From Myxococcota bacterium (lineage in GTDB: Bacteria; Myxococcota_A; UBA9160; UBA4427), in NCBI GenBank assembly GCA_965250285.1, contig OZ252299.1, positions 1,801,222 to 1,865,221 of the forward strand: a stretch of DNA of 64,000 nt. The letters run 5' to 3'. The position numbers were made by a program, and so were the translations under genes. Positions 700-46,381 of the stretch are shown in pieces. The notes under the pieces were generated by a model. That model searched no databases, was not told the DNA's origin, and saw only the letters and a program-made list of their open reading frames with translations. Position 1 is the first letter of the stretch, and each line of letters begins with the position of its first letter.

Positions 700-1719
700 T
701 CAGTCGAGGAGGTTCTGCCTCGGGTCACCTCGATCGAAGACGTTGAATCGCAGATTGCGGTCGCCCGAAACCTCCTTCCAACCGATCCGCAGCCCGCGCT
801 GCTCAGCCATGCGACGAGCTGCGAGGTAGACGTCGAAGCTGTCGGGCCAGACGAAGAAACGCACGTACTGCCGGCGTGGATTCAGCGCGTCGAGCGCCGC
901 CGCGAACCGGCTGTTTGGGCCGAGTTCGGCCTCGGTCTCGCCCGGAGCAATGTCGCCCGTCGGCACCAGCTCGGCATTGAGCGAATCGTCGAAGATCCAG
1001 CGGTACCCCTGGTCGCCGATCTGCTCCTTCTTGAAGTGGTTCACGATCCACGGCACGTCGGAGCGCTCGATCAGCATGTTCTCGCGCACAGACCCCGTCG
1101 CGTCTCGCATGCCGGCGATCAGGACGTCACCGAGATCGTCGAGGTCGAGCACGTGCACCTCGCCCCCACGGCAGAAGAAGAACACGCGCTCGAGGCCCGC
1201 GGGCACGGGTCTCGGATCGGGGAGTCGGATCGTGATCGGCTCGCCCGCGGCGGCGGGTTCGGCCAGGATCGCCAGCAGCTTCTCGCGCTCGCCCTCGGCG
1301 CGCTTCACCTCGCCCTCGAGGCGCGCCACCTCGACCTTCAGCTGCTCGCGAGCCTCGAGGCTCGGCTGGTCGCCCGCAGAGGCGCTCGGCCCCGGCAGCG
1401 ACTCGAACTCGTCGAGCAGCGGGCGCGCATCGGCCAGACGCAGGCCCGCGGTCTGTTCGGCCTTGAATCGCTCGAGCTCCGACCGCGCCATCTCGATGTC
1501 GGCCCGCACGTCGTCGCGTTCGCCGACCAGCTCGGCGAGATCGTTCGGGGTCGCCGCTGCGCGCTCCCCGGCGGTCGCGCGAATGCGTTCGACGGCGTCG
1601 CCGAGCGAGAGCTGCGTCACTGCGACGAGCACGACCAGAATGCCGACGACGTTCGCCATCGTATCGAGCAGCGAGTCGATGCTCTGGGCGTCTGCCCGCC
1701 TTCGCGCAGCCCGCGCCAT
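700..1719 (-). CDS. ExbD/TolR-like single-pass membrane protein with long coiled-coil stalk (distal paralog, keeps the TM Asp)
   Basis: 339-aa ORF. ATG 1719-1717 overlaps the upstream stop (TGATG). The N-terminus [30 protein letters not shown] resembles the TolR/ExbD TM entry (..PLLDVLLVLL..). Residues ~40-155 are E/R/A/L-rich and heptad-like. The C-terminus YVRFFVWPDSFDVYLAARRMAEQRGLRIGW resembles the end of the ExbD periplasmic fold. Assigned by eye; no HMM run. Confidence 0.6.
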   Translation of the reverse strand: MARAARRRADAQSIDSLLDTMANVVGILVVLVAVTQLSLGDAVERIRATAGERAAATPNDLAELVGERDDVRADIEMARSELERFKAEQTAGLRLADARPLLDEFESLPGPSASAGDQPSLEAREQLKVEVARLEGEVKRAEGEREKLLAILAEPAAAGEPITIRLPDPRPVPAGLERVFFFCRGGEVHVLDLDDLGDVLIAGMRDATGSVRENMLIERSDVPWIVNHFKKEQIGDQGYRWIFDDSLNAELVPTGDIAPGETEAELGPNSRFAAALDALNPRRQYVRFFVWPDSFDVYLAARRMAEQRGLRIGWKEVSGDRNLRFNVFDRGDPRQNLLD

Positions 1720-2534
1720 CAGCTGCCGAGCTCCGAGTCGGGCACGTCGAACAGGCTGAAGTCGAGCTCGCCGTCACCCGGCAGAGGCAGCTTCGCGAAG
1801 GGCACGTCGAGGCGAGAGGCTGCGACGGCGGCCTTGTTGAAGGTCTCGATGCCGTCCGGTCGGATCAGAAAGACCAGCTTGGTGTTGCGGAGCACTCGAA
1901 TGCGGCGCAGAAATCGCTGAAAGTCGGCGCCGCGCAGCAGATCTTCGGTCGGTACGCGGTATGTGAAGTCGCTGCGCGTGGTGTGCACTTCGACGTAGCC
2001 AGCCGTGCACTCCGCGAAGTACGGGCGGTAGGCCGGGCCGACGCCGGCCGGCGCGATGCGCATGCTCAGATCGCGCTTGGCCTTGTCGCGCGCATCGACG
2101 TCGGCCCGCAGGCCCTGGGTCTGCGCCTCGAGGCTCGCGCGCTTGGCCTGCAATCGGTCGCGCCGGGCGACGACGCGCGCACTGGCCGCAGACGCGCGCC
2201 GCTCGTCGACCAGTCGCTCGAGCTCTTCGAGCGAGATCTCGGGGCTCAGCCCCGCACCATCGAGGCGCGCGAAGAGCTCGTCCTGGTCGGCCTCGCTCGC
2301 CTGCACCGTGTCGAGCTGCTCGTCGAGGTCCTCGAGCTCCTGCTTTGCTTCGACGAGCGCCTGCTGCGCACGGTCGATGCGCTCGCCCAGCCGGACCCCT
2401 GCGAGCGCGCTGCTGCCGACCTGGCTCACCGCCATCGATGCGAGGATCAGCGTCAGCGCACCGATCACGCACGCCAGGACGGAGAGGAACGGAAAGAGCG
2501 AGACCTCGAGGCCTTCGCGTCGCCTGCGCGCCAC
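1719..2534 (-). CDS. ExbD/TolR-like single-pass membrane protein with long coiled-coil stalk (proximal paralog, Ser in place of the TM Asp)
   Basis: 271-aa ORF. GTG 2534-2532 is preceded by GAGGGG, 15 nt after the MotA-like stop. The N-terminus VARRRREGLEVSLFPFLSVLACVIGALTLIL follows the ExbD/TolR pattern but has FLS where TolR has LLD. Residues ~45-160 are E/R/A/Q/D/L-rich coiled-coil-like sequence. The C-terminus reads KLVFLIRPDGIETFNKAAVAASRLDVPFAKL (ExbD-like ending). Confidence 0.6.
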   Translation of the reverse strand: MARRRREGLEVSLFPFLSVLACVIGALTLILASMAVSQVGSSALAGVRLGERIDRAQQALVEAKQELEDLDEQLDTVQASEADQDELFARLDGAGLSPEISLEELERLVDERRASAASARVVARRDRLQAKRASLEAQTQGLRADVDARDKAKRDLSMRIAPAGVGPAYRPYFAECTAGYVEVHTTRSDFTYRVPTEDLLRGADFQRFLRRIRVLRNTKLVFLIRPDGIETFNKAAVAASRLDVPFAKLPLPGDGELDFSLFDVPDSELGS

Positions 2535-2549
2535 GCCCGCGCCCCTCGG

Positions 2550-3641
2550 CTAGCGCCGCCGCTCGAGCGCGGAGAGGAGCTTCTCGGCCACGCGATCGGC
2601 GACGCGATCGATCGTCGCGTCATCGACGTCGCCGCGGGGCTGTGCCTCACCCAGCCGGCGCACGAGGTGACGCGCGCAGTAGTCGTCGATCGCCGCGAGA
2701 TAATCCTCTTCGGCCTTTTGCAGAGAGCTCGTCGGAAACATGATGAAGAGACTCATGACGAGCGCGAGCAGGGTCGTGTCGAACGCGATCCCCAGGCCGC
2801 TCGTGACCGAGCCGATCGACTCCTTCATGACGTCGAGATCGCCGGCGGCCGCGACCGAGTCGGAGAAGCCCGCCACGGAGGCACCGATGCCGAGCACGGT
2901 GCCAATGAAGCCGAGGATCGGCACCGCCCAGATGAAGACGCGCAGCATCGTGTAGCTCGACTCGACGGCGTTCTCGTCGTTCTGCGCCTGGGCGGCGAGC
3001 TGCTCGACCACTTCTTCGGCGCTCTCGCGCGCGGCGTAGTGCTCGAGCGCGCGCGCAATGCGCCCGACCAGGTAGCCACGGCGCTGCTCGTCGGGCAGCG
3101 TGCGCAGGTAGCTGAGGAAGGCGGGCGCGTTCTCGGGCGTGATCGGGTCACCGATGCCCCGTGGCAGCAGGTCGAGGCCGAGGGCGCTGCGCTGGCGGCT
3201 CAGCACGACCGCCTTCGCGACGAGCATGGCCGCTGCCCAAAACGACAGGAAGCTCACGACGTAGGGGACCCAGCCGCGGGCGCCGAGCAGCTGTCCGAAA
3301 GGCGTGTCGGCAAGCGGGCGCACGACGGCGAGGTAGAACACGGCGGTCAGGGCGAAGGCCGCGAGACCGGTCCAGCTGAGGGGCACGTCGGTCGTGCCGC
3401 CGGTGGCGCGCAGCCCGGGTCCGGCGAGCTCGCGCAGGGGCTCGGGCTGCCCGGGGAGCACCGGCCCAGCCTCTTCATCCGCCGCGCGGGTTTGGCCGAC
3501 GACGGCCAGCGGAGCATCGCTCGGCAGGAACGAGTGGCCGCAGGCCTGACAGTCGAGGGGCGCTCGACTGCGCGGGTCGGTCACCGCGTTCTCCGCGCCG
3601 CAGTGCGGACAGATCGCGGCGGTCGATGCACGTTCGGCCAA
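2550..3641 (-). CDS. MotA/TolQ/ExbB-family proton-channel protein with N-terminal zinc ribbon
   Basis: 363-aa ORF (TTG 3641-3639). It has an N-terminal 4-Cys ribbon ICPHC-x16-CQAC, then hydrophobic TM segments. The C-terminal half carries the family signature region VPILGFIGTVLGIGASV ... GLGIAFDTTLLALVMSLFIMF. Confidence 0.75.
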   Translation of the reverse strand: MAERASTAAICPHCGAENAVTDPRSRAPLDCQACGHSFLPSDAPLAVVGQTRAADEEAGPVLPGQPEPLRELAGPGLRATGGTTDVPLSWTGLAAFALTAVFYLAVVRPLADTPFGQLLGARGWVPYVVSFLSFWAAAMLVAKAVVLSRQRSALGLDLLPRGIGDPITPENAPAFLSYLRTLPDEQRRGYLVGRIARALEHYAARESAEEVVEQLAAQAQNDENAVESSYTMLRVFIWAVPILGFIGTVLGIGASVAGFSDSVAAAGDLDVMKESIGSVTSGLGIAFDTTLLALVMSLFIMFPTSSLQKAEEDYLAAIDDYCARHLVRRLGEAQPRGDVDDATIDRVADRVAEKLLSALERRR

Positions 3642-3762
3642 TGCAGATCCTCGTCTCGGCGCGGGAATACGCGCGGCGGGAAGGTAGTCCAGGCCACGGG
3701 TTCGGCCCGCGACCGGTCCGCCCCGCGGCGGCGATCCAGGAGCGGGGATAGAATGCGGCGCG

Positions 3763-5082
3763 ATGGCGTCCTCACCGCACGATTCCGATGCCGCTCAGGC
3801 CCGCCTGGTGCTCGGCCTGTCGGGCGCCGCCAGCGAGGCCGAGCTGCAGGCGGCCTACTGGGCGCTCCGTGCGCACATCGAGTCGCGCGCGGTCACCAGC
3901 GAAGATCCCGGCTTCGTCGCCGCGCGTGTCGCCGAGCTGCAGCAGCTCACCGAGCGGCTCGCCCTCGCCCTCGACGTGCCGCCCGACTCGCTGCCCTCGC
4001 CGCGCATCGAGGCCGTGCAACCCGCTCCGCGCCAGGGCTGGCCGGTCTGGCTCGGCATCGGGGGGTTCGTCGCCGCGCTGCTGATCGGCCTCGTGTACTG
4101 GCTGATGCGAGCCCCGAGCGACGCGACCGACGCATCACCGCTCGCCGCCGTCGCCCAGGGCGACCCGCCTGGGCGACTCGTCTTTGCCGAATCCCCCACG
4201 GCCGCCCGCTTCACCGTGCTCGACGCGGAGGGCACGCGTGTCGTGCGAGCGGGCATCGTCTCGTCCGACCCGGTCGAGCTGGCGCCGGGCCAGTACTCGG
4301 TCTGGCTCTCGGCGCTGGCCTGCGACGCCAGCCGACACAACACGATCCGCGTCGAGACCGACGCCGACATCGAGCTCGTCGCGCCCGAGTGCACGCGCAC
4401 GCTCGCGCTCGTGCTGCGCTCGGACGTGACCGGTGATCGCGTGCGCATCGACGGCGAGGACGTCGGCAGCACGGGGCCGGGTGCGCACATCCTGCAGCCT
4501 GGCTCGCACGAGATCGCGATCGAGCACGGCGGGCGGGAGGCGTGGCGCGCCGAGATCGAGGTCGGCTCGGACGACCGGCTGACGCTGCACGCCGATCTGG
4601 CCGCCAAGGCGAACGCAGCCGACGAGCCGGAGGGCTCGCCCGACGCCGGCGACAGCGCGGAGACAGCGCGGCCGCCGCCTCCGCCGGGCCGCACCGCGGG
4701 GCCGCCGCCTCGGCCGCCCGGCTCGAGTGGTCGGCCCGGTGGTACGCGCGAAGGTCTTCCCGGCGGCACGAGCAGTGAATCACCGGTGCGCGATACCCAG
4801 GTCGCCGGCTCGCGCAGCTGGCACGATGCCGTGCGCCGCCGCTTGATCGACAAGTATGACGAGAACGGATCGCGCAGCCTCGACACCACCATCGAGATCG
4901 CTTCGATTCCCTGCAGCGAGTGGCTCGCGATCGAGAGCCAGTACGAGACCGGGGGGCTGCAGGTGCCGATGACCCGGCTCTACGGTTTCGACGGCTCCGA
5001 ATGGGTCGAAGGGGCGCTCGGAGTCGAACGCGGGCTGCGCGACTTCACGTATCGGCGCATGAAGGAGTGCGGGCTCAAGTAG
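3763..5082 (+). CDS. membrane-anchored PEGA-domain protein with J-domain-like N-terminus (no HPD)
   Basis: 439-aa ORF, ATG 3763. N-terminus LGLSGAASEAELQAAYWALRAHI (J-like helices, HPD absent). TM helix WPVWLGIGGFVAALLIGLVYWL. PEGA-type segments (ARFTVLDAEGTRV..; DRVRIDGEDVGSTGPGAHILQPGSHEIAIEHGGREAWRAEIEV). A Pro/Gly-rich linker, then a ~100-aa C-terminal domain of unknown type. Confidence 0.65.
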   Translation: MASSPHDSDAAQARLVLGLSGAASEAELQAAYWALRAHIESRAVTSEDPGFVAARVAELQQLTERLALALDVPPDSLPSPRIEAVQPAPRQGWPVWLGIGGFVAALLIGLVYWLMRAPSDATDASPLAAVAQGDPPGRLVFAESPTAARFTVLDAEGTRVVRAGIVSSDPVELAPGQYSVWLSALACDASRHNTIRVETDADIELVAPECTRTLALVLRSDVTGDRVRIDGEDVGSTGPGAHILQPGSHEIAIEHGGREAWRAEIEVGSDDRLTLHADLAAKANAADEPEGSPDAGDSAETARPPPPPGRTAGPPPRPPGSSGRPGGTREGLPGGTSSESPVRDTQVAGSRSWHDAVRRRLIDKYDENGSRSLDTTIEIASIPCSEWLAIESQYETGGLQVPMTRLYGFDGSEWVEGALGVERGLRDFTYRRMKECGLK

Positions 5083-6794: not shown

Positions 6795-7817
6795 TCAGAC
6801 GGCGGCGGACACCACGGCCCGAGGCTCAGGGCGCGGCAGCCGTGCCGGTTCGCCGGTCGCCGGATAGAACTGCTTCGCCCACTTGCGATAGGTCGCGACC
6901 GGTCCGTCGCCCACGGCGAGCGCGGGCTGCTCTTTGTAGATCTTGTGCTCCCAGACGTCGATGTCCTGGGTCACCTCGAGGCATAGGAACCAGTGCGTGA
7001 TGTTGCGGATCACATTGTTCAGCGGTCCGAACTTCTTCTTGATCGACGCCCCGAGGCGCAGGTCGATGTGGCCACCGTCCTTCGGCACGGGCATCACGAA
7101 GAACCGAAGCTCGGCGCCGAACTGCGGCAGGTCGACGTTCACCTGGGAGTAACCCAGGCCCCAGACCTGCACGTCGTACTCGACCTCGAGCACGAACTTC
7201 GGCATGAAGCTCAGGTTGAACCACGGCATGAAGCGCTGCACGCCGTACCGCGTGTTCAGGTGGGGGCCCTCGGTCTCGGCCTCGCGCACGATCCGGCCGT
7301 TGTCGAAGCCGTGCACCTGGGTGAAGTGCCCGAAGTCGACACTGTTCTCGGTCGTCTCCTGGGGATGCGTCGCGAGCGCGTACTCCTTCCAGGTGAGTCC
7401 GCTCCAGCCTTCGGTCTCGAGCGGCGGGATCTCCCACTCGGGCTCCCGCCCGAGCGCGTCGTACCAGACCATGACGAAACCGCCGATCTCGCGGACGGTC
7501 CACCGATCGAGCCGCGCGCGCACGGGCGGCGGGCCGTCGTAGGGCGTTGCGGTGCAGCGTCCTTCGGTGTCGAACTGGAAGCCGTGGAAGCCGCAGCGCA
7601 GCGACTCGCCCTTGACCTCGCCGATCTTGCCGAGGTTCGCGCCCATGTGCGGACAGAAGGCGTCGACGACGCGCAGAACGCCCGACTCGGTGCGGAAGAT
7701 GACGAGATCGCTCTCGAAGTACGGCCGCGAGATCAGCTGACCCGGCTTGACCTCGGCGCTCGTCGCGACGGCGTACCAGCCGCTCGGGAGACTCGGAAAC
7801 GGAAAACGCTCGCTCAC
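6795..7817 (-). CDS. Rieske [2Fe-2S] non-heme-iron oxygenase (alpha-subunit type)
   Basis: Rieske motif CPHMGANLG..-x-..CGFHGFQF, plus a mononuclear-iron motif DFGHFTQVH downstream. Start trimmed from the track (7946) to GTG 7817-7815 (VSERFPFPSLPSGWYAV), which is preceded by GAGGGGTGAGGG. The upstream extension is Arg/Ala/Gly-rich. Confidence 0.8.
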   Translation of the reverse strand: MSERFPFPSLPSGWYAVATSAEVKPGQLISRPYFESDLVIFRTESGVLRVVDAFCPHMGANLGKIGEVKGESLRCGFHGFQFDTEGRCTATPYDGPPPVRARLDRWTVREIGGFVMVWYDALGREPEWEIPPLETEGWSGLTWKEYALATHPQETTENSVDFGHFTQVHGFDNGRIVREAETEGPHLNTRYGVQRFMPWFNLSFMPKFVLEVEYDVQVWGLGYSQVNVDLPQFGAELRFFVMPVPKDGGHIDLRLGASIKKKFGPLNNVIRNITHWFLCLEVTQDIDVWEHKIYKEQPALAVGDGPVATYRKWAKQFYPATGEPARLPRPEPRAVVSAAV

Positions 7818-8150
7818 ACCCTCACCCCTCGATCCTCGGACGCGCTCTTGCCGCCCGGCCACCCGTGCCAGGCGAACCGCCGCTCGTGACGGGTCCAAAG
7901 CGGGTCCTGCCCCGGGGGCCGTGGCGCGGCCGCACGAGAGTCGCACCCCGGCTGTCGCGAAGCACCCCGCTCACGGGCGTGAAACCGCCGTGAATCGATG
8001 CTCCGTCGCTGAAACGCCGCTCAGTGCAGTTTCGCGGAATGTGAATCAGACCCGATCCGCCCACGGGTCAGCGAAAGCCGATGGGCGTGCCGACTCGGTG
8101 CGCCGAGACCGGCTCAGCCTGGCGCGCGCGTCGCCCTGCTTCGGGTGGGC

Positions 8151-9450: not shown

Positions 9451-10284
9451 TTGAAAGCCTTGATTCACGTCTTCGGACAGCGCGGCCGCACCGGCATCGC
9501 CGCCGGCGTCGGAGCGCTCGCACTTGCCGCCGGGGCCACCGTCGCCTCGGTCGCACTCGTGGCCGAGCCCGTCGCGGCGCAGTCGCAGACGCTCGACTCC
9601 GCGATTACGACCAACGCCGAGGGCAACGCCGGCTCCCTCGCGTCCCAGAAGCGCATCGATCAGATCGCCGATGCCACCGACGACATGGCGAGCTCGTACC
9701 GAGCGAGCCTCGAGCAGATCGAGTCGTTGCGTGTCTACAACGCGCAGCTCGAGAAGCTGATCGCCGCGCAGGAAGCCGAGCTCACCTCGCTCGACAATCA
9801 GATCGGTGAGGTCACGGTCATCGGGCGTGAGATGACGCCGCTGATGCTGCGCATGATCGACGCACTCGAAGCCTTCGTCGATGCCGACGTGCCCATGCTG
9901 CTCACCGAGCGCCGCGACCGAATCGCCGAACTGCGCGACCTGATGGATCGCGCCGACGTCGCGGACAGCGAGAAGTATCGCCGCATCACCGAGGCCTATC
10001 AGATCGAGAACGAGTACGGCCGCACGATCGAGGCCTACAACGGCGACGTCGTGATCGACGGCGAGACCCGCACCGGCGACCTGCTCCGCGTCGGCCGCAT
10101 TGCGCTGATCTACAGCGCGCTGGACGGCAGCGATGTGCGCGCGTGGGATCAGCGCCAGGGTGACTGGGTGCCGCTCGACGCCGACGCACGAGACACGATC
10201 CGCAAGGGCATCCGCATCGCCCGCAAGCAGGCCGCGCCCGACCTCGTCCGCCTGCCGATCCTGGCCCCCGAGGAGGCGAACTGA
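9451..10284 (+). CDS. DUF3450-family periplasmic coiled-coil protein (TonB2-system TtpB-like)
   Basis: The conserved DUF3450-like core RDRIAELRDLMDRADVADSEKYRRITEAYQIENEYGRTIEAY is recognised from memory of the family. Signal-peptide-like GIAAGVGALALAAGATVASVALVAEPVAAQ. Start set at TTG 9451. The track ORF extends to 8689, but that part translates to R/P/G-rich non-coding-looking sequence. The stop overlaps the next start (TGATG at 10282-10286). Confidence 0.75.
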   Translation: MKALIHVFGQRGRTGIAAGVGALALAAGATVASVALVAEPVAAQSQTLDSAITTNAEGNAGSLASQKRIDQIADATDDMASSYRASLEQIESLRVYNAQLEKLIAAQEAELTSLDNQIGEVTVIGREMTPLMLRMIDALEAFVDADVPMLLTERRDRIAELRDLMDRADVADSEKYRRITEAYQIENEYGRTIEAYNGDVVIDGETRTGDLLRVGRIALIYSALDGSDVRAWDQRQGDWVPLDADARDTIRKGIRIARKQAAPDLVRLPILAPEEAN

Positions 10285-11678
10285 TGTCCCGCTCCACCCA
10301 GCTCATCGTGGCCCTGCTGGCCGCGGTCATGGTCGCGCTCGCGCCCACGGCCGTCGTCTTCGCCCAGGCCGATCAGAAGCTCACCCTCGACGAGCTGCTC
10401 GCGAAGGTGAAGGAAGGCTGGCGCGCCGAGCGCGCCGCCAATCGTCAGCGTGAGGCCGAGTTCAAGGCCGACCGCGCCAACCAGAAGCAGCTCTTGCAGC
10501 AGGCGCTCGCGACCCAGGCCAAGGAAGAGGACCGCAGCGCCGAGCTCGAGGACCTCTTCGCCGCCAACGAGGTGCGCATCGCCGAGCAGGAGAAGGCCCT
10601 GCAAGAGAAGCTCGGCAGCCTCGGCGAACTCTTCGGCGTCGTGCGGCAGGTCGCGGGTGATACCAAGAGCCAGGTCGAGAACTCGATCATCAGCTCGGAG
10701 TTCCCCGACCGGCAGGCCTTCCTCGACCGACTCGGACAGAGCAAGAAGCTGCCCCAGCTCGAAGACCTCGAAGGTCTCTGGTACGCGCTGCAGCAGGAGA
10801 TGACCGAGCAGAGCAAGGTCGTGCGCTACAACGCGCCGGTCGTGCTCTCGTCGGGCGAGGAATCCGAGCTCGAGGTCGTCCGCATCGGCGCGTTCAACGC
10901 CGTCGCCGACGGCAAGTACCTGACCTGGCAGGACCAGGTGCAGCGACTCGCCGAGATCGGTCGCCAGCCGGCCGCGAAGTACGTCGACACCATCGGGCCC
11001 TTCGTCGCCACGACCACGGGCTTCGCCGAGTTCGCCGTCGACCCCTCGCGCGGCACGATCCTCTCGCTGCTCGTCGATACGCCGACGTTCCGCGAACGCC
11101 TCGAGTTCGGCGGCGTGGTCGGCATGATCATCATCATCCTCGGCAGCTTGACCTTCCTGCTGGCGGTGGTGCGGACGGTCATGATCTTCATCGTCAGCCG
11201 GAAGGTCGCCGCGCAGAAGAAGACGTCGACGCCGAACAAGGGCAACCCGCTCGGTCGACTGCTCCAGGTCTACGCCGACAACCGCAACGTCGACACCGAG
11301 ACCCTCGAGCTGAAGCTCGAAGAGGGCCTGTTGCGCGAGACGGCCAGCCTCGAGCGCTTCCTGTGGCTCATCAAGGTCGTTTCGGCGGTCGCCCCGCTGC
11401 TCGGCCTGCTCGGTACGGTCACCGGCATGATCAACACCTTCCAGATCATCACGCTGTACGGCACCGGTGATCCGAAGATGATGGCGGGTGGTATCTCTGA
11501 GGCCCTGGTCACGACGATGCTCGGCCTGTACGCGGCGATCCCGCTGGTGCTGATGCACAGCGTCGTGTCGAGCCTGTCGACGGGCGTGACCAACGTCCTC
11601 GAGGAGCAGACCACGGGCCTGATCGCCCAGCAGTCCGAGGCCGAAGTGCCCGCGACGCCTCGGCCGGTCGAAGGCTGA
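10284..11678 (+). CDS. large MotA/TolQ/ExbB-family protein with periplasmic coiled-coil N-domain (TtpC-like)
   Basis: 464 aa. Signal peptide LIVALLAAVMVALAPTAVVFAQA, a long periplasmic coiled-coil region, then a TolQ/ExbB core with APLLGLLGTVTGMINTF and GISEALVTTMLGLYAAIPLVL. Confidence 0.85.
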   Translation: MSRSTQLIVALLAAVMVALAPTAVVFAQADQKLTLDELLAKVKEGWRAERAANRQREAEFKADRANQKQLLQQALATQAKEEDRSAELEDLFAANEVRIAEQEKALQEKLGSLGELFGVVRQVAGDTKSQVENSIISSEFPDRQAFLDRLGQSKKLPQLEDLEGLWYALQQEMTEQSKVVRYNAPVVLSSGEESELEVVRIGAFNAVADGKYLTWQDQVQRLAEIGRQPAAKYVDTIGPFVATTTGFAEFAVDPSRGTILSLLVDTPTFRERLEFGGVVGMIIIILGSLTFLLAVVRTVMIFIVSRKVAAQKKTSTPNKGNPLGRLLQVYADNRNVDTETLELKLEEGLLRETASLERFLWLIKVVSAVAPLLGLLGTVTGMINTFQIITLYGTGDPKMMAGGISEALVTTMLGLYAAIPLVLMHSVVSSLSTGVTNVLEEQTTGLIAQQSEAEVPATPRPVEG

Positions 11679-11701
11679 GACGGGGAGCGGAGACAGCGAC
11701 C

Positions 11702-12217
11702 ATGGACATGATTCTCGAGCCCATCGGCGACTTCATGACTGCGGGCGGCGACGTGCTGAAGCTCATCTTCGCCGTCACGCTGGCCATGTGGACGCTGATC
11801 CTCGAGCGCACCTGGTACTACCGCCTTCAGCTCCCGAAGGAGCTGAAGGTGGTGCTCGAGAAGTGGAACGCTCGAGAGGATCAGACCAGCTGGGGCGCGC
11901 ATCAGATCCGGGATCTGTACATCTCGGAGACCTCGATCAACGTGAATCGCAGTCTGCCGATGATCGCGACCCTCGTGGCCGTGTGTCCGCTGCTGGGGCT
12001 GCTCGGCACGGTGACGGGGATGATCGAGGTCTTCGACGTGATGGCGGCCGCGGGCAACAGCAACCCGCGCGCCATGGCGTCGGGTGTCTCGAAGGCCACG
12101 ATCCCGACGATGTCGGGTCTTCTCGCGGCCCTCTCCGGCCTCTACTTCTCGGTCCAGCTCAAACGCTATGCGAACAAACAGACCGATCAGCTCAGCGAGC
12201 ACCTGATCCACAGGTAA
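11702..12217 (+). CDS. exbB: ExbB/TolQ-type proton channel subunit
   Basis: 171 aa. CPLLGLLGTVTGMIEVF and GVSKATIPTMSGLLAALSGLYF are typical ExbB/TolQ signatures. It lies directly upstream of exbD-tonB. Confidence 0.85.
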   Translation: MDMILEPIGDFMTAGGDVLKLIFAVTLAMWTLILERTWYYRLQLPKELKVVLEKWNAREDQTSWGAHQIRDLYISETSINVNRSLPMIATLVAVCPLLGLLGTVTGMIEVFDVMAAAGNSNPRAMASGVSKATIPTMSGLLAALSGLYFSVQLKRYANKQTDQLSEHLIHR

Positions 12218-12271
12218 GCCCCTTCGAACCGAATGCGGCTCACTTCGAGTGAGCGAGAGTCAGGGACGAAC

Positions 12272-12676
12272 ATGCGCCGTAGACGAACGCGAGAGCAGGA
12301 AGAGAGCGAGATCGACATCACCCCGATGCTCGATGTCGTCTTCATCATGCTCATCTTCTTCATCGTGACCGCCAGCTTCGTGAAAGAGGCCGGCATCGAC
12401 GTGAACCGCCCCGACGCCTCGACCGCCGAGGTGAAGGAGCGCGGCAACATTCTCGTCGCCATTACCGAGAACAATCAGGTCTGGATCGACCGTCGCCAGG
12501 TCGACGTACGCTCGGTGCGGGCCAACATCGAGCGGCTCCGAGCGGAGAATCCCGAGGGTGCGGTCGTCGTCCAGGCAGACAAGAACTCGAAGAACGGGCT
12601 TCTGGTCAAGGTGATGGATGCGGCACGGCTGGCCGGCGTCGAGAACGTGTCGCTCGCCGCGACCCAAACGGAGTAG
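12272..12676 (+). CDS. exbD: ExbD/TolR-type biopolymer transport protein
   Basis: MRRRRTREQEESEIDITPMLDVVFIMLIFFIVTASF is the canonical ExbD N-terminus with the TM Asp. The C-terminus reads AVVVQADKNSKNGLLVKVMDAARLAGVENVSL. Start trimmed to ATG 12272 (track 12233). Confidence 0.9.
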   Translation: MRRRRTREQEESEIDITPMLDVVFIMLIFFIVTASFVKEAGIDVNRPDASTAEVKERGNILVAITENNQVWIDRRQVDVRSVRANIERLRAENPEGAVVVQADKNSKNGLLVKVMDAARLAGVENVSLAATQTE

Positions 12677-12685
12677 CGCTCCAGA

Positions 12686-13294
12686 ATGGCCATCCGCAGC
12701 GTCAGCGCTTTCCTGCTCGCCATGGGCATCACCATGGGGCTGTTCTTTCTCATGCAGTCGCTGATCTCGCAGGATCCGAGCGTCGGCGAAAAGCGCAAGA
12801 ACAAGTCGATCGAGTTCGTCCGAATCAAGCGAGAATCGACGCTTCAGGAGAAAGAGCGCAAGCTCCCCGACAAGCCCAAGAAGGAAGAGCCGCCGCCGCC
12901 CCCGCAGCTCGATTTCTCGACGCCGGACGACGCAGCGGGCGAGACCATGTCGATCGCGGCGTCGGGCATCGACACGGGTGTCAGCCTCGGCACGGGCATG
13001 GGCGGCCTCGCCACCGCCGACAGCGACGTCGCGCCGATGGTGCGCGTGCTCCCGCAGTACCCCGCTCGCGCCCAGGAGCGTGGCATCGAGGGCTACGTGA
13101 TCGTCGAGTTCACCATCGCCGTTGACGGGACAGTGAAGGACGCCATCGTCCTCGACTCGCAGCCCTCGAAGATCTTCGATCGCGCGGCCCTGCGCGCCAT
13201 TCGCAAGTGGAAGTACAAGCCCAAGGTCGAAGACGGCCAGGCCGTCGAGCGATCGGGCGTTCGCGTGCGCATGCCGTTCGAGCTCGAGAAGTAG
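12686..13294 (+). CDS. tonB: TonB-family energy transducer
   Basis: N-terminal TM anchor, a Pro/Lys/Glu-rich spacer (KPKKEEPPPPPQ), and a TonB C-terminal domain (PQYPARAQERGIEGYVIVEFTIAVDGTVKDAIVLDSQPSKIFDRAALRAIRKWKYKP). Confidence 0.9.
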   Translation: MAIRSVSAFLLAMGITMGLFFLMQSLISQDPSVGEKRKNKSIEFVRIKRESTLQEKERKLPDKPKKEEPPPPPQLDFSTPDDAAGETMSIAASGIDTGVSLGTGMGGLATADSDVAPMVRVLPQYPARAQERGIEGYVIVEFTIAVDGTVKDAIVLDSQPSKIFDRAALRAIRKWKYKPKVEDGQAVERSGVRVRMPFELEK

Positions 13295-13318
13295 GAAAGA
13301 ACGTTCGGAGGACTCCCC

Positions 13319-14680
13319 ATGTCCATCGCATCCATGAAGTCGACTCACTCATTCCGCCGCATCGCCGCCCTCCTCACGATGGTGGCTTTCGTCTGCACCC
13401 TTCCGCTCGCCGCGCTGGCCCAGGACGACGCCGCGCCGAAAAAGAAGCGGAAGAAAGAGAAGACGTACACGATGCAGCCGACGACGATGAAGAAGTTGGC
13501 GAAGTTCTACGAGTACGCCGAAGAGGAAGACTTCGACAGCGCCCTCGACGTGCTGATCTCTCTTGCGAAGCGCAAGAGCCTGAAGAAGCACGATCGCGCC
13601 ATGGTCTATCAGTTCATGGGCTTCATGTACGCCCAGAAGGAAGACTACGGCAGGGCAACGAAGGCGATGGAGCGCGCGCTCAAGCAGAACGCGCTGCCCT
13701 TCTCGACGACACAACAGGTCAAATTCGCGCTCGGTCAGCTCTACATGGCCGAAGACCGCATGGATGACGCGATCGTCGTGCTTCAGGACTGGTACGACCA
13801 GGAGGAGGAGCCCGGCGCCGACGCCAACTTCAGGCTGGCCGCGGCGTATATGGCCACCGAACAGTTCGCGAAGGCGCTGCCCTACGCCCGCAAGTCCGTG
13901 GCCATGTCGACGGAGGAGCCGAAAGAGCGCTTCCTCGCAGTCAACCTGATGACCGAGTTCCAGCTCGGCAACTTCATGGAGAGCCTCGAGCTCTTGAAGG
14001 TGCTCGCGAGCTACTTTCCCAAGAAGCGCTACTACACGCAGCTCGCGTTCGGCTACACCGAGCTCGGCGAGATGGAGACGGCGCTGGCCGTTCTGCAGCT
14101 GGCCTACGCCGAGGGCTGGCTCGACAAGGAGAGCGAGCTGCTGAGCCTGGCGCAGCGCCTCTATTCGGCCGATCTGCCCTACCAGGCCTCGCTCGTGATC
14201 AGCAAGGGCATCGACGACGAGATCATCGAGCCCACCGAGAAGAACCTCGAGTTCCTCTCGAGTGCCCTGCTCTCGGCCCGAGAGTACGAGGAGAGCCTCG
14301 AGCCCCTCGAGCAGGCCGCCGAGATCTCCGACAGTGGCGACCTGTACGTCCGCCTCGCCCAGGTGCACCTGCAGGTCGAACGCTGGCCGGCCGCTCAGCA
14401 GGCCCTCGAGAAGGCCGTGCAGAAGGGCGAACTCGACGACGCCGGCCGGGCCCAGCTGCTGCTCGGCATCACCCAGTTCAACCAGAAGCGCTACCAGTCG
14501 GCCCGCGCCGCCTTTGGGCGAGCCGCCAAGGACGAAAACCTGGCCGCCAGCGCGAACCAGTGGATCGAGCACACCGATCGGCAGATCGCGATTGCCGAGC
14601 TCGAAGCGCAGCAGCAGGCTGACGCCGAGCAGCGTCGGGCGGAGGCCGAGGCCGGCAAGTCGGCCTTCGAGCAGCTCTAG
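13319..14680 (+). CDS. secreted TPR-repeat protein (TonB2-system TtpD-like)
   Basis: 453 aa. Signal peptide IAALLTMVAFVCTLPLAALAQ. Repeated TPR-like A/Y/L-patterned helices throughout. It occupies the last position of a TonB2-type cluster. Confidence 0.7.
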   Translation: MSIASMKSTHSFRRIAALLTMVAFVCTLPLAALAQDDAAPKKKRKKEKTYTMQPTTMKKLAKFYEYAEEEDFDSALDVLISLAKRKSLKKHDRAMVYQFMGFMYAQKEDYGRATKAMERALKQNALPFSTTQQVKFALGQLYMAEDRMDDAIVVLQDWYDQEEEPGADANFRLAAAYMATEQFAKALPYARKSVAMSTEEPKERFLAVNLMTEFQLGNFMESLELLKVLASYFPKKRYYTQLAFGYTELGEMETALAVLQLAYAEGWLDKESELLSLAQRLYSADLPYQASLVISKGIDDEIIEPTEKNLEFLSSALLSAREYEESLEPLEQAAEISDSGDLYVRLAQVHLQVERWPAAQQALEKAVQKGELDDAGRAQLLLGITQFNQKRYQSARAAFGRAAKDENLAASANQWIEHTDRQIAIAELEAQQQADAEQRRAEAEAGKSAFEQL

Positions 14681-40758: not shown

Positions 40759-42381
40759 GTGCCCTTCCCCACCGAAACGCCCACGATCCCCATCTTCCTG
40801 CGCCGCATCGCCGCCGAGCGCGGCGGCACCGACATGATCGTGCTCGACGAGCGGAGGCTGTCCTACACCCAGGTCGAGCGTCAGTCGGCGCGGCTCGCCC
40901 GGGCGCTGCTCGCGCGCGGCGTCGGCAAGGGCACCCGCGTGGCCGTGCTCATGCCGAACGGGCCCGACTGGCTCGTCGCGTTCCTTGCGACGACGCGGAT
41001 CGGCGCGCTGCTCGTGCCGCTCAATACCTTCTTTCAGACGCGCGAGCTGCACTGGATCCTGCGGCACGCCGACGTCGACACGCTGCTCACGGTCGACCGG
41101 TTTCTGAGTCATGACTACCTCGAGCGGCTCGAGGCGGCCGCGCCGTCACTGGCTGAGGCCAGCGGCGCACCGTTGCGCTTGCCCGAGCTGCCCTTCCTGC
41201 GCCGCGTGATCGTGTGGGGTGAAGGCGAACGCACGTGGACCGAGCCGGGGCCGCCGCTCACGGCCGCCGAACCGCCCGACGTCGACGAGGCCTTTCTCGA
41301 GGCTGTCGAAGCCCAGGTCACGCCGGCTGACCCGTTGGCCCTCTTCTACAGCTCCGGCAGCACCGCCGATCCGAAGGGCGCGATCCATACCCATGGCACG
41401 GTGCTTCGTCATTCGTTCAATCTCGCCGCCGGTCGCGACGTCGTCGCCTCGGATCGTGTGTGGTCGCCCATGCCCTTCTTTTGGGTGGGCGGCTTCGTCT
41501 TCGCGTTGGTCGGCAACCTGCAGGCGGGCGCCACGACCCTCTGCGAGGAGGTGTTCGACCCCGAGCAGACCCTGCGCTTTCTCGAGCGCGAGCGCGTGAC
41601 GGTCGCCATCGGCTGGCCGCACTTCGGCAAGGCGCTCGCCGAACACCCGACCCGGGCCGACCGCGATCTGTCGTCGCTCCGGGCCGGCAACGTGCCCGAC
41701 ATCCTGCCCGAAGAGATCTGCTCGACCGACCCCGAGCTGCGATCGAATGCCCTCGGCATGACCGAGACCTGCGGACCCCACACGTGGAGTCCGACCGTCG
41801 GTCGCCTCTCCGAAGATGAGCGCGGCACGTTCGGGATCCCCGTCGAAGGCGTCACGCATCGCGTCATCGACCCCGAGACCGGCGAAGACCTGCCGTCTGG
41901 CGAGGTCGGCGAGCTGAGTGTCCGGGGCTACAGCCTGATGCAGGGGCTCTACAAGCTCGAGCGTGAAGACGTCTTCGAGCCCGACGGCTTCTACCGCACC
42001 GGCGACGCAGGCTACTTCGACGCCCACGGGCAGCTCGTCTTCAAGGGTCGGCTCGGTGACATGATCAAGACCGGCGGCGCGAACGTGACCCCGAGCGAGA
42101 TCGAACAGGTGCTCGTCAGCTACGACGAGGTGAAGGAGGCCTACGTCGTCGGCGTCGACCACCCCGACAAGGGGCAGACGGTCGAGGCGGCGGTGACACT
42201 CGAGATCGGCCAGACGATCGAAGGCGACGCTCTGCGGTCACGGCTCAAGCAGGATCTCTCGGCCTACAAGGTGCCGCAGCACGTGTTCGTTTACGCGAGC
42301 GGGACGCTGCCCTTCACGACGACGGGCAAGATCGACAAACGCGGGCTCACGGCCGAGTTGAAGGATCGACTCGGCCGCTAG
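40759..42381 (+). CDS. AMP-dependent acyl-CoA synthetase/ligase
   Basis: 540 aa, GTG start with GGAG 7 nt upstream. LFYSSGSTADPKGAIHTHG, GMTETCG and KTGGANVTPSEIE are adenylate-forming enzyme motifs. Confidence 0.9.
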   Translation: MPFPTETPTIPIFLRRIAAERGGTDMIVLDERRLSYTQVERQSARLARALLARGVGKGTRVAVLMPNGPDWLVAFLATTRIGALLVPLNTFFQTRELHWILRHADVDTLLTVDRFLSHDYLERLEAAAPSLAEASGAPLRLPELPFLRRVIVWGEGERTWTEPGPPLTAAEPPDVDEAFLEAVEAQVTPADPLALFYSSGSTADPKGAIHTHGTVLRHSFNLAAGRDVVASDRVWSPMPFFWVGGFVFALVGNLQAGATTLCEEVFDPEQTLRFLERERVTVAIGWPHFGKALAEHPTRADRDLSSLRAGNVPDILPEEICSTDPELRSNALGMTETCGPHTWSPTVGRLSEDERGTFGIPVEGVTHRVIDPETGEDLPSGEVGELSVRGYSLMQGLYKLEREDVFEPDGFYRTGDAGYFDAHGQLVFKGRLGDMIKTGGANVTPSEIEQVLVSYDEVKEAYVVGVDHPDKGQTVEAAVTLEIGQTIEGDALRSRLKQDLSAYKVPQHVFVYASGTLPFTTTGKIDKRGLTAELKDRLGR

Positions 42382-42409
42382 CCCGTTCGCTCGACAGTCA
42401 GCGGTTGCG

Positions 42410-42427
42410 GCGCCGCGGTCGCGGCGC
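42410..42427. terminator. GC hairpin (7-bp stem GCGCCGC/GCGGCGC) between convergent genes
   Basis: gcgccgc-ggtc-gcggcgc lies in the 51-nt gap between the ACS stop (42381) and the DsbA-like stop (42433). No U-tract. Confidence 0.3.
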
Positions 42428-42432
42428 TCACC

Positions 42433-43170
42433 TCACCCCTGCTGCTCGCGCAGCTGCTGGTCGATGATGCGCTTGAACTCGCTGAACGGCTTGGCGCCCG
42501 ACGTGAACTTGCCATTGATGAAGAAGCCCGGCGTGCCGGTCACGCCCAGGCGATTCGCCTCGGCGACGTCGGAGTCGACGCGCTTGCGGGTGTCGGCCGA
42601 GGCCATGTCGGCCTTGAACTGGTCGATGTCGAGATCGAGCTGACTCGCGTACTCGAGATACTTCGCGCCGCTCATCTCGCGCTGGTTCGAGAAGATCAGG
42701 TCGTGCATCTCCCAGAAGCGGCCCTGGTTCGCGGCCGCCTGGGCGGCGGCGTGGGCCTCGGGGGCCTTCGTGTGCATCGCGAGCGGCAGGTGCTTGAAGA
42801 CGATCCGCACGTCGTCGCCGTATTCCTTCTCGATCTGCTTCATGGTGCCGACGACGCGGCCACAGAAGGGGCACTGGAAGTCGGAGAACTCGACGACGGT
42901 GATGGCGGCATCCTCGGGGCCGATCGAGGGCGAGCCCGCCGTATTCACGGCGTAGACGCGATCGGGGTCGGGGCCGCGCCGCGGACGACGAGTGGGCGCC
43001 TGGGCCGCCGCGCCGGCGCCGCCGGCCTTTGCGAGGGCCACGACCGCCTCACCGAGCTGGGCGATCTGCTGCGAATTCTGGCCGAGCGACTGGGTCATCA
43101 TGTAGGCGCTGCCCAGAATGCTGAAGCCGATGATCGTGGCGGCGATGACGATGGAGCTGCCATTGTTCAC
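42433..43170 (-). CDS. DsbA-family thiol:disulfide oxidoreductase (membrane-anchored or secreted)
   Basis: Active site FQCPFCGR within a thioredoxin fold, plus the DsbA helical insert (RFWEMHDLIFSNQ) and GVTGTPGFFINGK. N-terminal hydrophobic anchor SSIVIAATIIGFSILGSAYMM. Start trimmed to GTG 43170. Confidence 0.85.
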   Translation of the reverse strand: MNNGSSIVIAATIIGFSILGSAYMMTQSLGQNSQQIAQLGEAVVALAKAGGAGAAAQAPTRRPRRGPDPDRVYAVNTAGSPSIGPEDAAITVVEFSDFQCPFCGRVVGTMKQIEKEYGDDVRIVFKHLPLAMHTKAPEAHAAAQAAANQGRFWEMHDLIFSNQREMSGAKYLEYASQLDLDIDQFKADMASADTRKRVDSDVAEANRLGVTGTPGFFINGKFTSGAKPFSEFKRIIDQQLREQQG

Positions 43171-43471
43171 GGTTCGAATCTCCAATGATGCCTGAGAGTG
43201 AGTGCGATGATGTGACTGCGGCGGATCGAGGTCGCAGCGTGAGTCGAAATCGAGAGGGATACGGGGCTGGCCCGTGAGCGGCGCGAGGCGGCAGCATACC
43301 ACGAGGGCAATCGGCCAGGATACGCAGCGCCGGACCGCTGCCCAGCCCTGAGGGCGCGGCTACGCGGCTCCGCACGGATGCGCCCATCGGTTTCGACGCC
43401 GCCCGGCGAAGCCGGTTCCCGGCTACCGGTCCACTTCAGCCCTTCTGCCCGCATGGCAATGGCGCAGGGCG

Positions 43472-43714
43472 TCAGAGCTCCTCGTCTTCGTCGACGTCCT
43501 TGATGCAGACCGGATGCGGCGCGTGCTCGGGGCCGTCGTCCCAGCCCGGCAACGAGGCGGCCTGCGCCATCCACGAGTCGGCCAGCGATTCGTCGAGCAC
43601 GACGTCGTTGTTGTCGAACCCCTCGATCAACGCATCCCAGAGATCCTGCCCCCCGCTTTCCCACCACTCGCGGCCGGGGTGCTCGAAGTCGATCGCGAGC
43701 CGCACCATCTTCAT
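43472..43714 (-). CDS. small acidic hypothetical protein (80 aa)
   Basis: ATG 43714 with GAGGA upstream. MKMVRLAIDFEHPGREWWESGGQDLWDALIEGFDNNDVVLDESLADSWMAQAASLPGWDDGPEHAPHPVCIKDVDEDEEL. No family recognised. Confidence 0.45.
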   Translation of the reverse strand: MKMVRLAIDFEHPGREWWESGGQDLWDALIEGFDNNDVVLDESLADSWMAQAASLPGWDDGPEHAPHPVCIKDVDEDEEL

Positions 43715-43822
43715 CGTTCGAAATCCTCGTCTGCGGCGCCCGAGCGGGGCCAACCGCGCGGGAGCGTAGCGCGAGGGGATCGCCGTGGCGGGGCGGAGCC
43801 TGCGGCCTCCGCCGGCCTCTTC

Positions 43823-44161
43823 TCAGCCGCGCGGGCGCCAGCGATGACGGCCCAGATCCACGCGACCTCGGGCGTCGAAGGCGACGCCCTCACGCTCGAG
43901 CATCTGTCGCTGGACGTGCTCGGCGCCGGGCTCAGACCGCGCGCTGCACTCGCCCCGGGCGTTGATCACACGCTGCCACGGCACGCGCCGCTGCTCGTTT
44001 CGCAGGGCATGGAGTGCGTAGCCGACCTGACGCGCATGGCCCTTCAGGCCGGCGAGCTCGGCGACCTGTCCGTACGTGGCGACGCGACCTTTCGGGATGC
44101 GGCGCACGACGGCATAGATCCGGTCGTACGTGTTCGCCTGGGCGCCCGGCGACGCCGTCAC
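43823..44161 (-). CDS. MGMT-family alkyltransferase-like (ATL) DNA-binding protein lacking the active-site Cys
   Basis: YAVVRRIPKGRVATYGQVAELAG...VPWQRVINARG. The family's P-C-H-R acceptor motif is replaced by P-W-Q-R, as in ATL/YbaZ-type proteins. GTG 44161 overlaps the prlC stop (GTGA). Confidence 0.75.
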   Translation of the reverse strand: MTASPGAQANTYDRIYAVVRRIPKGRVATYGQVAELAGLKGHARQVGYALHALRNEQRRVPWQRVINARGECSARSEPGAEHVQRQMLEREGVAFDARGRVDLGRHRWRPRG

Positions 44162-46269: not shown

Positions 46270-46381
46270 GGTCGCCTCCAGTGTTGCGGGGACGCGCAAA
46301 AGTAGCAGCTGGACGAAGGGGCTCCCGCCATTCGCTGACGTCGACGTGCTTCGCGGGCCGGGGCGGTACACTGCGCGCCGC

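Follow-up and report, generated by a model that had tools for sequence, protein, structure and literature searches.

The 64,000-nucleotide stretch of a Myxococcota bacterium analysed here (assembly GCA_965250285.1, contig OZ252299.1, positions 1,801,222-1,865,221; hereafter the window) encodes a three-gene module that, by analogy with known systems, looks like an ion-driven membrane motor of the MotA/ExbB class which has not been described before. The module comprises g1 (2550-3641, minus strand, 363 residues), a MotA/ExbB-family subunit, followed on the same strand by g2 (1719-2534, 271 residues) and g3 (700-1719, 339 residues), the putative axle subunits, of which g3 carries an aspartate in its predicted transmembrane (TM) helix and g2 does not. 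We put the probability at about one half that the three proteins form an asymmetric 5:1:1 ion-driven motor, anchored in the envelope via its stalk and delivering its output into the cytoplasm. Full-text literature searches, including surveys of the MotA family (PMC12505986, PMC9389320, PMC12204202) and the Zorya structures (PMC11890865), returned no description of such a triad.

The three linked open reading frames (ORFs) lie where the first-pass annotation of the window had placed them, and its reading of both junctions agrees exactly with the letters. The g1 gene starts with TTG, preceded by GAGGA, and ends with TAG (2552-2550). It is separated from g2 by a 15-nt gap (2535-2549, minus strand) containing GAGGGG at 2547-2542, 7 nt before the GTG start of g2 (2534), and g2 in turn overlaps the ATG start of g3 in a TGATG stop/start sequence (1717-1721, minus strand). 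This translational coupling of g2 and g3 directly after g1 is consistent with the motor reading. The next gene, 3' of g3, codes for an AMP-binding acyl-CoA synthetase and extends past the window start; it is unrelated, so the operon consists of three genes. A scan for sigma-70 promoters and intrinsic terminators found none, a result that is uninformative at 70% GC.

The assignment of g1 to the MotA/TolQ/ExbB family was confirmed by Pfam MotA_ExbB (PF01618), which matches residues 197-311 with 38.3 bits against a cutoff of 22.9, and the 1143 homologs of g1 (47-91% identity) are annotated with PF01618 throughout. Four TM helices are predicted. The core of the protein (residues 197-311; window 2709-3053, minus strand), delimited by the Pfam envelope, invariant columns and TM prediction, retains the canonical pore motifs PxLGxxGTV and AFxTT, with PILGFIGTV in the third helix (residues 235-253) and AFDTT in the fourth (residues 283-301). 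T248 of the third helix and T289 and T290 of the fourth are invariant in 34 homologs; P241 and D288 are also invariant. T248 and T289/T290 align with residues of the ZorA polar ring (in IGT and AFLTS), which encircles the aspartate of ZorB (PMC11890865), and g1 is presumed by analogy to be a pentameric ion channel or rotor. The invariant aspartate beside the Thr-Thr pair (D288; window 2778-2780), shared by the homologs, would place five extra carboxylates round the presumed pore; together with the doubled threonine and the many marine carriers, it makes one ask whether Na+ or H+ would be the coupling ion.

The N-terminus of g1, predicted to be cytoplasmic, contains a four-cysteine ribbon, CPHC-x16-CQAC (residues 11-34; window 3540-3611, minus strand). 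What stands of the zinc-ribbon proposed earlier is the conserved motif itself, in which C11, C14, C31 and C34 are invariant or nearly so across the short-form homologs; matches to zinc-ribbon Pfam and PDB entries were sub-threshold only, and the motif suggests zinc binding. The appendages of the core differ between lineages. The window type has the ribbon, the core and a short tail (55 residues), other Myxococcota have the core with a C-terminal helical tail of about 270 residues and no ribbon, bacteria of the Planctomycetes-Verrucomicrobia-Chlamydiae (PVC) group have the ribbon, the core and a tail of about 200 residues, and cyanobacteria have the core and a tail.

When a g1 profile that included the tail was compared with PDB, the sole MotA-family structure matched was that of a type I ZorA from Shewanella (8vvn, with E 7e-8), and ExbB, TolQ, MotA and PomA gave no score. 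The window protein alone matched 8vvn with E 0.045 in the core region, and a tail-free profile matched no MotA-family chain in PDB. The loss of the 8vvn match with the tail-free profile is the reason why ZorA is treated as a weak candidate for closest relative. The models of defence systems gave a similar picture, NCBIfam antiphage_ZorA_2 scoring 17 bits against a cutoff of 100 and PADLOC ZorA2 reaching E 4.8e-6 over the core only. By sequence, g1 is a deeply divergent branch of the MotA/ExbB superfamily whose likeness to ZorA is mainly architectural.

The homologs of g2 (332) and g3 (at least 145) are unnamed and belong to no Pfam family, hundreds of them being labelled 'hypothetical' in public records, and searches with g2 and g3 in Pfam, NCBIfam and PADLOC gave no family besides coiled-coil noise. 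An hhalign comparison of the two family alignments scored 97.7% (E 1.7e-12) over the full length, the C-terminal domain of g3 having an extra insertion, and on this similarity g2 and g3 are classed as true paralogs. Both consist of an Arg-rich N-terminus, one predicted TM helix, a stalk of about 120 residues and a C-terminal alpha/beta head, which upholds the common architecture described in the first-pass annotation.

The TM helix of g2 (residues 11-36; window 2427-2504, minus strand) carries the motif VSLFPFLSVLACVIG, in which S12, L13, P15, F16, L17, S18, C22 and G25 are invariant. Its counterpart in g3 (residues 13-38; window 1606-1683, minus strand), defined by conserved columns, carries DSLLDTMANVVGILV, with D15, L17, L18, D19 and T20 near-invariant and M21, N23, G26 and Q36 invariant. 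The consensus across phyla is (V/I)SLFPFLS(V/I)LAC for g2 and LDSLLDTM(A/T)NVVGILV for g3. The earlier claim that the distal paralog alone keeps the TM aspartate is borne out by Asp in 84 of 84 g3 loci and Ser in 75 of 75 g2 loci. In short, low-probability alignments VSLFPFLSV of g2 falls on IDITPMLDV of ExbD, which places Ser18 at the position of the ExbD aspartate; Asp19 of g3 is the candidate ion-binding residue. Overall identity between phyla is only about 30% and the TM helices of both proteins are nearly invariant, as expected of helices packed inside a conserved pore. Moreover, the two paralogs constantly co-occur, which argues for a heteromer and thus for an axle with a single carboxylate.

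The predicted periplasmic helical stalks, defined by composition and periodicity, span residues 40-158 of g2 (window 2061-2417, minus strand), with a hinge near GAGLSPE (about residues 94-103), and residues 40-160 of g3 (window 1240-1602, minus strand), where Pro/Gly hinges divide the stalk into segments. Both are composed to 70-76% of E, D, R, K, Q, A and L and show a hydrophobic periodicity of about 3.4 residues (peak/median 10-22 in g2) which is not present in the C-terminal domains, so the heptad-like stretch rich in E, R, A, Q and L that had been noticed in both paralogs is real. The g2 stalk matches only coiled coils in Pfam and PDB. The mean difference in stalk length between the paralogs is 7 +/- 5 residues, and the lengths are correlated, with r 0.81 overall (n 60) and r 0.88 in the Myxococcota-like group (n 20); at one locus (L036) both stalks are shortened, to 118 and 124 residues.

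The heads were modelled with good confidence by AlphaFold2 from a 117-sequence alignment. The head of g2 (residues 160-262; window 1749-2057, minus strand; pLDDT 85, pTM 0.79), in which C176 is invariant, is predicted to follow the order beta-beta-beta-alpha-beta-alpha-beta-beta. That of g3 (residues 172-339; window 703-1206, minus strand; pLDDT 93, pTM 0.85) aligns with it in hhalign and consists of the g2-homologous head plus an insertion of about 70-80 residues. The junction of stalk and head in g3 is marked by an LPDPRP motif (residues 166-171; window 1207-1224, minus strand), where P167 and P169 are invariant and R165, L166, D168, R170 and P171 near-invariant. The protein ends with Asp339, and a terminal aspartate is found in 84 of 85 loci, the sole exception running off its contig.

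The label 'ExbD/TolR-like', which the first-pass annotation gave to both paralogs, fared less well. Pfam ExbD (PF02472), the family named there for comparison, matches neither g2 nor g3 (E<=1) nor any of 77 members of their families (E<=10), and sequence-profile searches of PDB returned coiled coils only. In hhalign, comparison with a 79-sequence ExbD alignment, narrow in that it came from a full-library search seeded by the window's own ExbD, gave 0.8% for g2 and 9.4% for g3; after the stalk and insertion were cut out the TM region alone gave 3-18% and the heads alone 0.1-0.2%. Membership of ExbD was rejected on these five tests (window Pfam, 77-member Pfam, PDB profile and the two forms of hhalign), all negative or non-significant. 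In a Foldseek search of PDB, TolR (5by4) ranked second among 852 matches of the g2 head, with E 0.026 and a TM-score of 0.47-0.51, no match having an E value below 1e-3. A stalk-less cousin of g2 from Anabaena (153 residues, described below) scores 17.8 bits with Pfam ExbD (E 0.0036, cutoff 25.4) over residues 8-118, which include the TM helix and the domain. Remote kinship with ExbD/TolR is plausible because of this sub-threshold score, the rank of the TolR fold, the ExbD size of the stalk-less cousins and the TM register, and the heads probably share a distant ancestry with the periplasmic domain of TolR/ExbD. Since the direct tests are negative and the signs indirect, g2 and g3 are described here as working like B subunits and are not filed under ExbD/TolR. 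A PilN/PilO or GspM-type fold was considered for the heads and rejected, such folds being absent from the top 50 Foldseek matches.

The distribution of the triad was surveyed with one genome per species, which gave 170 confirmed g3 loci in reference genomes, and the best 80 of these were examined. In about 70 of the 80, hidden Markov models of the families place g1, g2 and g3 next to one another, in this order and on one strand. By record title, 47 of the best 80 loci come from Planctomycetota, including Kolteria novifilia, Roseimaritima sediminicola, Planctomycetales ZRK34, Gimesia and Rhodopirellula, 13 from Myxococcota or 'Deltaproteobacteria', 9 from Verrucomicrobiota, Lentisphaeria or Kiritimatiellia, and 11 from poorly classified metagenome-assembled genomes. 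Even distant homologs of g2 (33-43% identity) have a MotA_ExbB gene and a g3 homolog as neighbours. The gene arrangement is strongly conserved across phyla. No fourth gene is conserved with the triad in the loci examined, and a hidden fourth component 3' of g3 in PVC loci was rejected, as neither phmmer clustering nor common Pfam matches were found there. The triad is a self-contained module.

A set of 121 genes beside stalked triads proved to be of ordinary chromosomal kinds (sulfatases, gyrB, tRNA synthetases, kinases). PADLOC gave a single recurrent match among them, a GajB/UvrD-like protein at seven loci. HelD, or helicase IV, is an RNA-polymerase recycling factor. The GajB/UvrD-like protein is its ortholog (6wvk_H, 1.4e-47; 6yxu_H, 1.9e-23), so the PADLOC label is misleading and the protein was dismissed as a defence effector. 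In the window's Myxococcota subclade this ortholog (about 700 residues, 79% mean column identity) is found 3' of the triad in the same orientation, adjoining it or past the AMP-binding gene (L087, 7107-9221; L003, 11752-13845; L006, 8125-10212; and orthologs). In L087, the closest relative of the window, it is two genes downstream of g3, and it is probably also present just past the window start. Synteny with housekeeping genes is kept within this subclade. The stalked form was not found in phage records, viral contigs or plasmids; a mobile or phage origin was discarded, given that there are no phage or viral-contig homologs and that the plasmid copies are stalk-less cyanobacterial cousins only.

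These cousins were reached by a tblastn search of g3 against plasmids, which gave a partial match to plasmid p1 of Microcystis aeruginosa NIES-2481. The triad found there (L085/L086, NZ_CP025929.1, record 41267-47301) encodes a MotA-like protein of 470 residues, which has VWAIPLLGFIGTV and AFDTTLLAL as in g1 and a helical tail, a g2-like protein of 153 residues with DLFPFLSILAC, and a g3-like protein of 236 residues with LDSFLDIMTN, the last two without a stalk. Their heads score 98.2% and 97.8% in hhalign against the g2 and g3 profiles, and the 153-residue protein is 52.6% identical to its Anabaena ortholog. As these stalk-less heads are homologous to those of g2 and g3, the stalk was either inserted into both in concert or lost from both in concert. 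In Microcystis the triad is directly 3' of a PLD+SNF2 helicase-nuclease gene (PADLOC HKD+Snf2, 3e-65; ZorD, 3e-14), on an island that also contains N6-methylase, nucleotidyltransferase+SLATT, DUF559, NUDIX, HNH and GIY-YIG genes, and may represent an undescribed Zorya-like defence system. On plasmid pANACY.03 of Anabaena cylindrica PCC 7122 (NC_019773.1; L088, 1-10175) the stalk-less triad is directly 3' of the type III-B genes cmr2-cmr3-cmr4-cmr6 on the same strand; an unannotated gene for a 510-residue protein, with no Pfam match, accompanies the cmr operon, and a viperin gene follows at a distance of a few kb. The Anabaena triad is possibly a CRISPR-associated membrane module. Unlike their cyanobacterial cousins, stalked triads are not located in defence islands.

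In the mechanism that we favour, five g1 subunits would surround two TM helices, one from g2 and one from g3, by analogy with the solved 5:2 motors, the axle being formed by two different, obligatorily paired paralogs instead of a homodimer. Only Asp19 of g3 would provide a carboxylate, facing the g1 polar ring of T248, T289 and T290 beside D288, where ions would pass, and g2 would contribute a serine at the position of this aspartate. The paired stalks of about 120 residues would reach into the periplasm, each capped by its alpha/beta head; the heads may grip the wall or an outer layer of the envelope, with the stalk setting the height. The flow of ions could then turn or switch the g1 ring against the fixed g2/g3 axle, and the output would reach the cytoplasm through the g1 appendage, which is the four-cysteine ribbon here and the long helical tail in many relatives, following the logic of MotAB and ZorAB. 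Of all this, the linkage of the genes, the family of g1, the paralogy of g2 and g3, their topology and motifs and the conservation of the triad are supported by the data, and the stoichiometry, ion coupling, anchoring, direction of output and physiological role are inferred.

Several observations weigh against this mechanism. An axle with one aspartate might not rotate at all, because the solved 5:2 motors all use two identical Asp-bearing helices. Direct sequence tests of ExbD/TolR kinship fail; the TolR match of the modelled g2 head is weak, with uS11 and RNase-H-like folds ranking beside it at the top, and Foldseek found no significant PDB fold match for the g3 head. Neither an OmpA-like domain nor a peptidoglycan-binding motif was found in g2 or g3 by Pfam and Foldseek. 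The ZorA affinity of g1 is gone once the long-tailed sequences are dropped, and the tail of the window protein has just 55 residues. Covariation of stalk lengths is not significant within PVC bacteria (r 0.31, n 40), which limits this line of evidence to the matched shortening at L036 and the matched absence of stalks in the cyanobacterial cousins.

The main rival places the work in the periplasm. Following the logic of GldLM or Ton/Tol, g1 would be fixed and the g2/g3 axle turned or pulled, the stalk carrying work outward to a target in the outer membrane or the periplasm, on which the heads and the invariant C-terminal Asp of g3 would dock. What most sets the stalked family apart, and is best conserved in it, is its elaboration of long periplasmic stalks and heads, and these parts stay constant, whereas the cytoplasmic appendages of g1 vary by lineage (ribbon, tail or both); the terminal Asp and the LPDPRP motif of g3 could serve as docking elements, and there is a precedent in TolQ-like motors with heterologous pore-inserting pairs, for which direct force transduction has been proposed (PMC12204202). 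However, no outer-membrane or periplasmic partner gene is conserved with the triad in any clade, hinged stalks of 120-165 residues may fall short of spanning the periplasm, the cyanobacterial cousins function without stalks, and AlphaFold2 packs the C-terminus of g3 into its own domain instead of leaving it free. On balance we regard this outward transmission of force as rather unlikely.

A Zorya-like anti-phage sensor, in which the periplasmic heads would detect envelope damage and signal inward to an effector encoded elsewhere, is suggested by the homologous stalk-less triads in the clear defence islands of Microcystis and Anabaena, by the ZorA-like tails of g1 relatives and by the fact that the only PADLOC and NCBIfam defence models touched by g1 are those of ZorA. 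The score with the NCBIfam model is nevertheless far under its cutoff, the ZorB-type OmpA domain is missing, and no effector of the ZorC/ZorD, ZorE or ZorF/ZorG type is present in the window or among the 121 flanking genes. The ordinary nature of these genes, whose sole recurrent PADLOC match is HelD, the housekeeping synteny of the window's subclade and the lack of phage, viral-contig and plasmid copies of the stalked form all speak against the window triad being a typical defence system, and a sensor of this kind seems improbable. Least credible to us is the idea that the module is not a motor, in which case g1 would be a gated channel or a degenerate scaffold of the MotA kind and g2/g3 a structural periplasmic coiled coil, such as an envelope spacer or a PilN/PilO-type alignment complex. 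It would account for a carboxylate on just one of the two presumed axle helices; the layout of TM helix, coiled coil and alpha/beta domain is that of bitopic scaffold pairs, and a weak match to the PilN coiled coil was obtained in PDB (E 0.72). Yet the polar residues lining the g1 pore are all invariant across phyla, which would not be expected of a degenerate scaffold, the g3 aspartate is likewise invariant, and the top 50 Foldseek matches include no PilN, PilO or GspM fold.

Returning to the 5:1:1 motor, its fuller form is a tentative proposal to which we give somewhat less than even odds: a new class of asymmetric 5:1:1 motor with a single carboxylate and an invariant serine, derived from an ExbD-sized ancestor by concerted stalk insertion and used for envelope-to-cytoplasm signalling, in cyanobacteria for defence with type III-B systems or SNF2 nucleases and in Myxococcota and PVC bacteria as a chromosomal sensor or actuator. 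To our knowledge, the structurally characterised MotA-type motors (MotAB, ExbBD, TolQR, GldLM and ZorAB) all have an axle of two identical helices, and in current rotary models two identical aspartates take turns. If the proposal is true, a natural axle of one Asp helix and one Ser helix would test the need for two carboxylates and the way in which stepping is driven by symmetry mismatch. The short list of envelope energy transducers would also gain a nameless family without a Pfam model, carried by at least 170 reference species of Myxococcota, Planctomycetota and Verrucomicrobiota relatives, in which the biology of the envelope is still little understood. The cousins in defence islands suggest more than one evolutionary origin, or more than one form, of sensing in the style of ZorAB. 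Of interest in the module are its heteromeric axle with an invariant single Asp, the putative concerted insertion of the stalk and the wide range of carriers.

The divergently transcribed neighbour of g1 (3763-5082, plus strand, 439 residues) encodes a membrane protein with a PEGA domain (Pfam PEGA, 36.3 bits), as had been annotated, while the J-like N-terminus attributed to it gave no DnaJ match (Pfam, E<=1). The suggestion that this protein is the envelope partner or load of the triad was ruled out: it adjoins the triad at no more than 11 of 82 loci, which all belong to the Myxococcota subclade of the window, its position being taken in other clades by an ankyrin-repeat gene, sulfatases, kinases and others. 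The PEGA gene is a lineage-specific neighbour outside the module core. Its N-terminus (window 3763-5082, plus strand; L003 5387-6775, minus strand) has a conserved sequence, LLGI..ASP.QLE..YW.LRAHIESRA, that resembles helix II of the J domain without HPD, and the C-terminal domain, past a Pro-rich linker, is conserved and belongs to no family. The separate TonB2-type set mentioned in the first-pass annotation was found at window 9508-14680 (plus strand), where a DUF3450 gene, two MotA_ExbB genes (464 and 171 residues), ExbD, TonB_C and a TPR protein are clustered; L003 also has a DUF3450 gene near its triad.

Some planctomycete genomes depart from the usual arrangement. A solitary full g3 homolog with all motifs, and no g1 or g2 within 7 kb, occurs at seven loci of Gimesia and other Planctomycetaceae (L043, L045, L049, L051, L060, L063 and L065; about 6989-8100), in six of them between dethiobiotin-synthase-like and FHA-like (Yop-YscD_cpl) genes and in L049 with different neighbours. 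The complete genome of Planctomycetales bacterium ZRK34 (CP050848.1; L017, L073) contains two full triads at distant chromosomal positions. In Kolteria novifilia Pan216 (L023, 756-3524, minus strand) a VgrG-like protein (Phage_GPD, Phage_base_V, gp5 C-terminal) is encoded upstream of the triad on the opposite strand, with a 140-residue ORF between them; this was seen at a single locus.

As the first-pass annotation had supposed, the triad maps onto none of AglRQS, TolQRA, ZorAB and GldLM, and OmpA-domain, TonB/TolA, TolB/Pal and ZorC/D genes are absent from its immediate vicinity. GldL forms a separate family, and the GldM axle is a homodimer whose periplasmic part is made of several domains and not of a coiled coil. 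A Pfam scan of g1, g2 and g3 gave no GldL or GldM family, g1 matching MotA_ExbB; the likeness to GldLM/PorLM, of type IX secretion and gliding, is that of a 5:2-type motor with an axle subunit reaching far into the periplasm toward the outer membrane. AglRQS, the gliding motor of Myxococcus, consists of one TolQ-like and two different TolR-like subunits, AglQ and AglS being canonical small proteins of the TolR/ExbD family. It resembles the triad in that an A subunit is encoded together with two B-type subunits that differ from each other, and in its occurrence in the Myxococcota. However, the two B-type subunits of the triad both lack a match to Pfam ExbD, have stalks and include one without the aspartate, no glt genes are found nearby, and most triad carriers are non-gliding PVC bacteria. 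Another system, uncharacterised and reported from PVC bacteria and Proteobacteria, has a TolQ-like gene and, after it, genes for two different proteins in place of TolR/ExbD, each predicted to insert a pore helix into the pentamer; both have a C-terminal vWA domain and retain the aspartate (PMC12204202). In contrast, g2 and g3 have coiled-coil stalks and TolR-like heads, Pfam finds no vWA domain in them, and no vWA or TPR genes lie beside PVC triads; because of the absence of these genes the triad is considered distinct from that system, and identity with it was ruled out.

The triad resembles ExbB-ExbD and TolQ-TolR in its g1 pore motifs, which are of the ExbB/TolQ type, in its N-in, bitopic B-type subunits encoded just 3' of g1, in the TM register of LFPFLSV on ITPMLDV, in the weak top-ranking match of the g2 head to the TolR fold and in the ExbD size of the stalk-less cousins. 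It differs from them by four TM helices in g1 instead of three, the inserted stalk of about 120 residues, a heteromeric axle with a single aspartate and the lack of significant ExbD/TolR similarity, as well as by the absence of TolB, Pal, a third protein of the TonB/TolA type (no TonB_C or TolA match in g2, g3 or the PEGA protein) and a His-bearing TM motif of the SHLS type, the helices of g2 and g3 having no histidine. Compared with ZorAB, a 5:2 motor (PMC11890865), the axle of the triad is built of two different paralogs, one without an aspartate, g1 in the window has a four-cysteine ribbon and a short tail, the genomic context is housekeeping, and the OmpA-like peptidoglycan-binding domain and the ZorC/D/E/F/G genes are missing; g2 and g3 gave no OmpA match in Pfam, no ZorB match in PADLOC and no OmpA-like fold in Foldseek. 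The features shared with ZorAB are a MotA-family A subunit with a Ser/Thr polar ring, a long C-terminal helical tail in many g1 relatives, about 120 residues between the TM helix and the periplasmic domain, as in type I ZorB (PMC11890865), and, in the stalk-less cousins, an adjoining SNF2 nuclease-helicase gene in the manner of ZorD.

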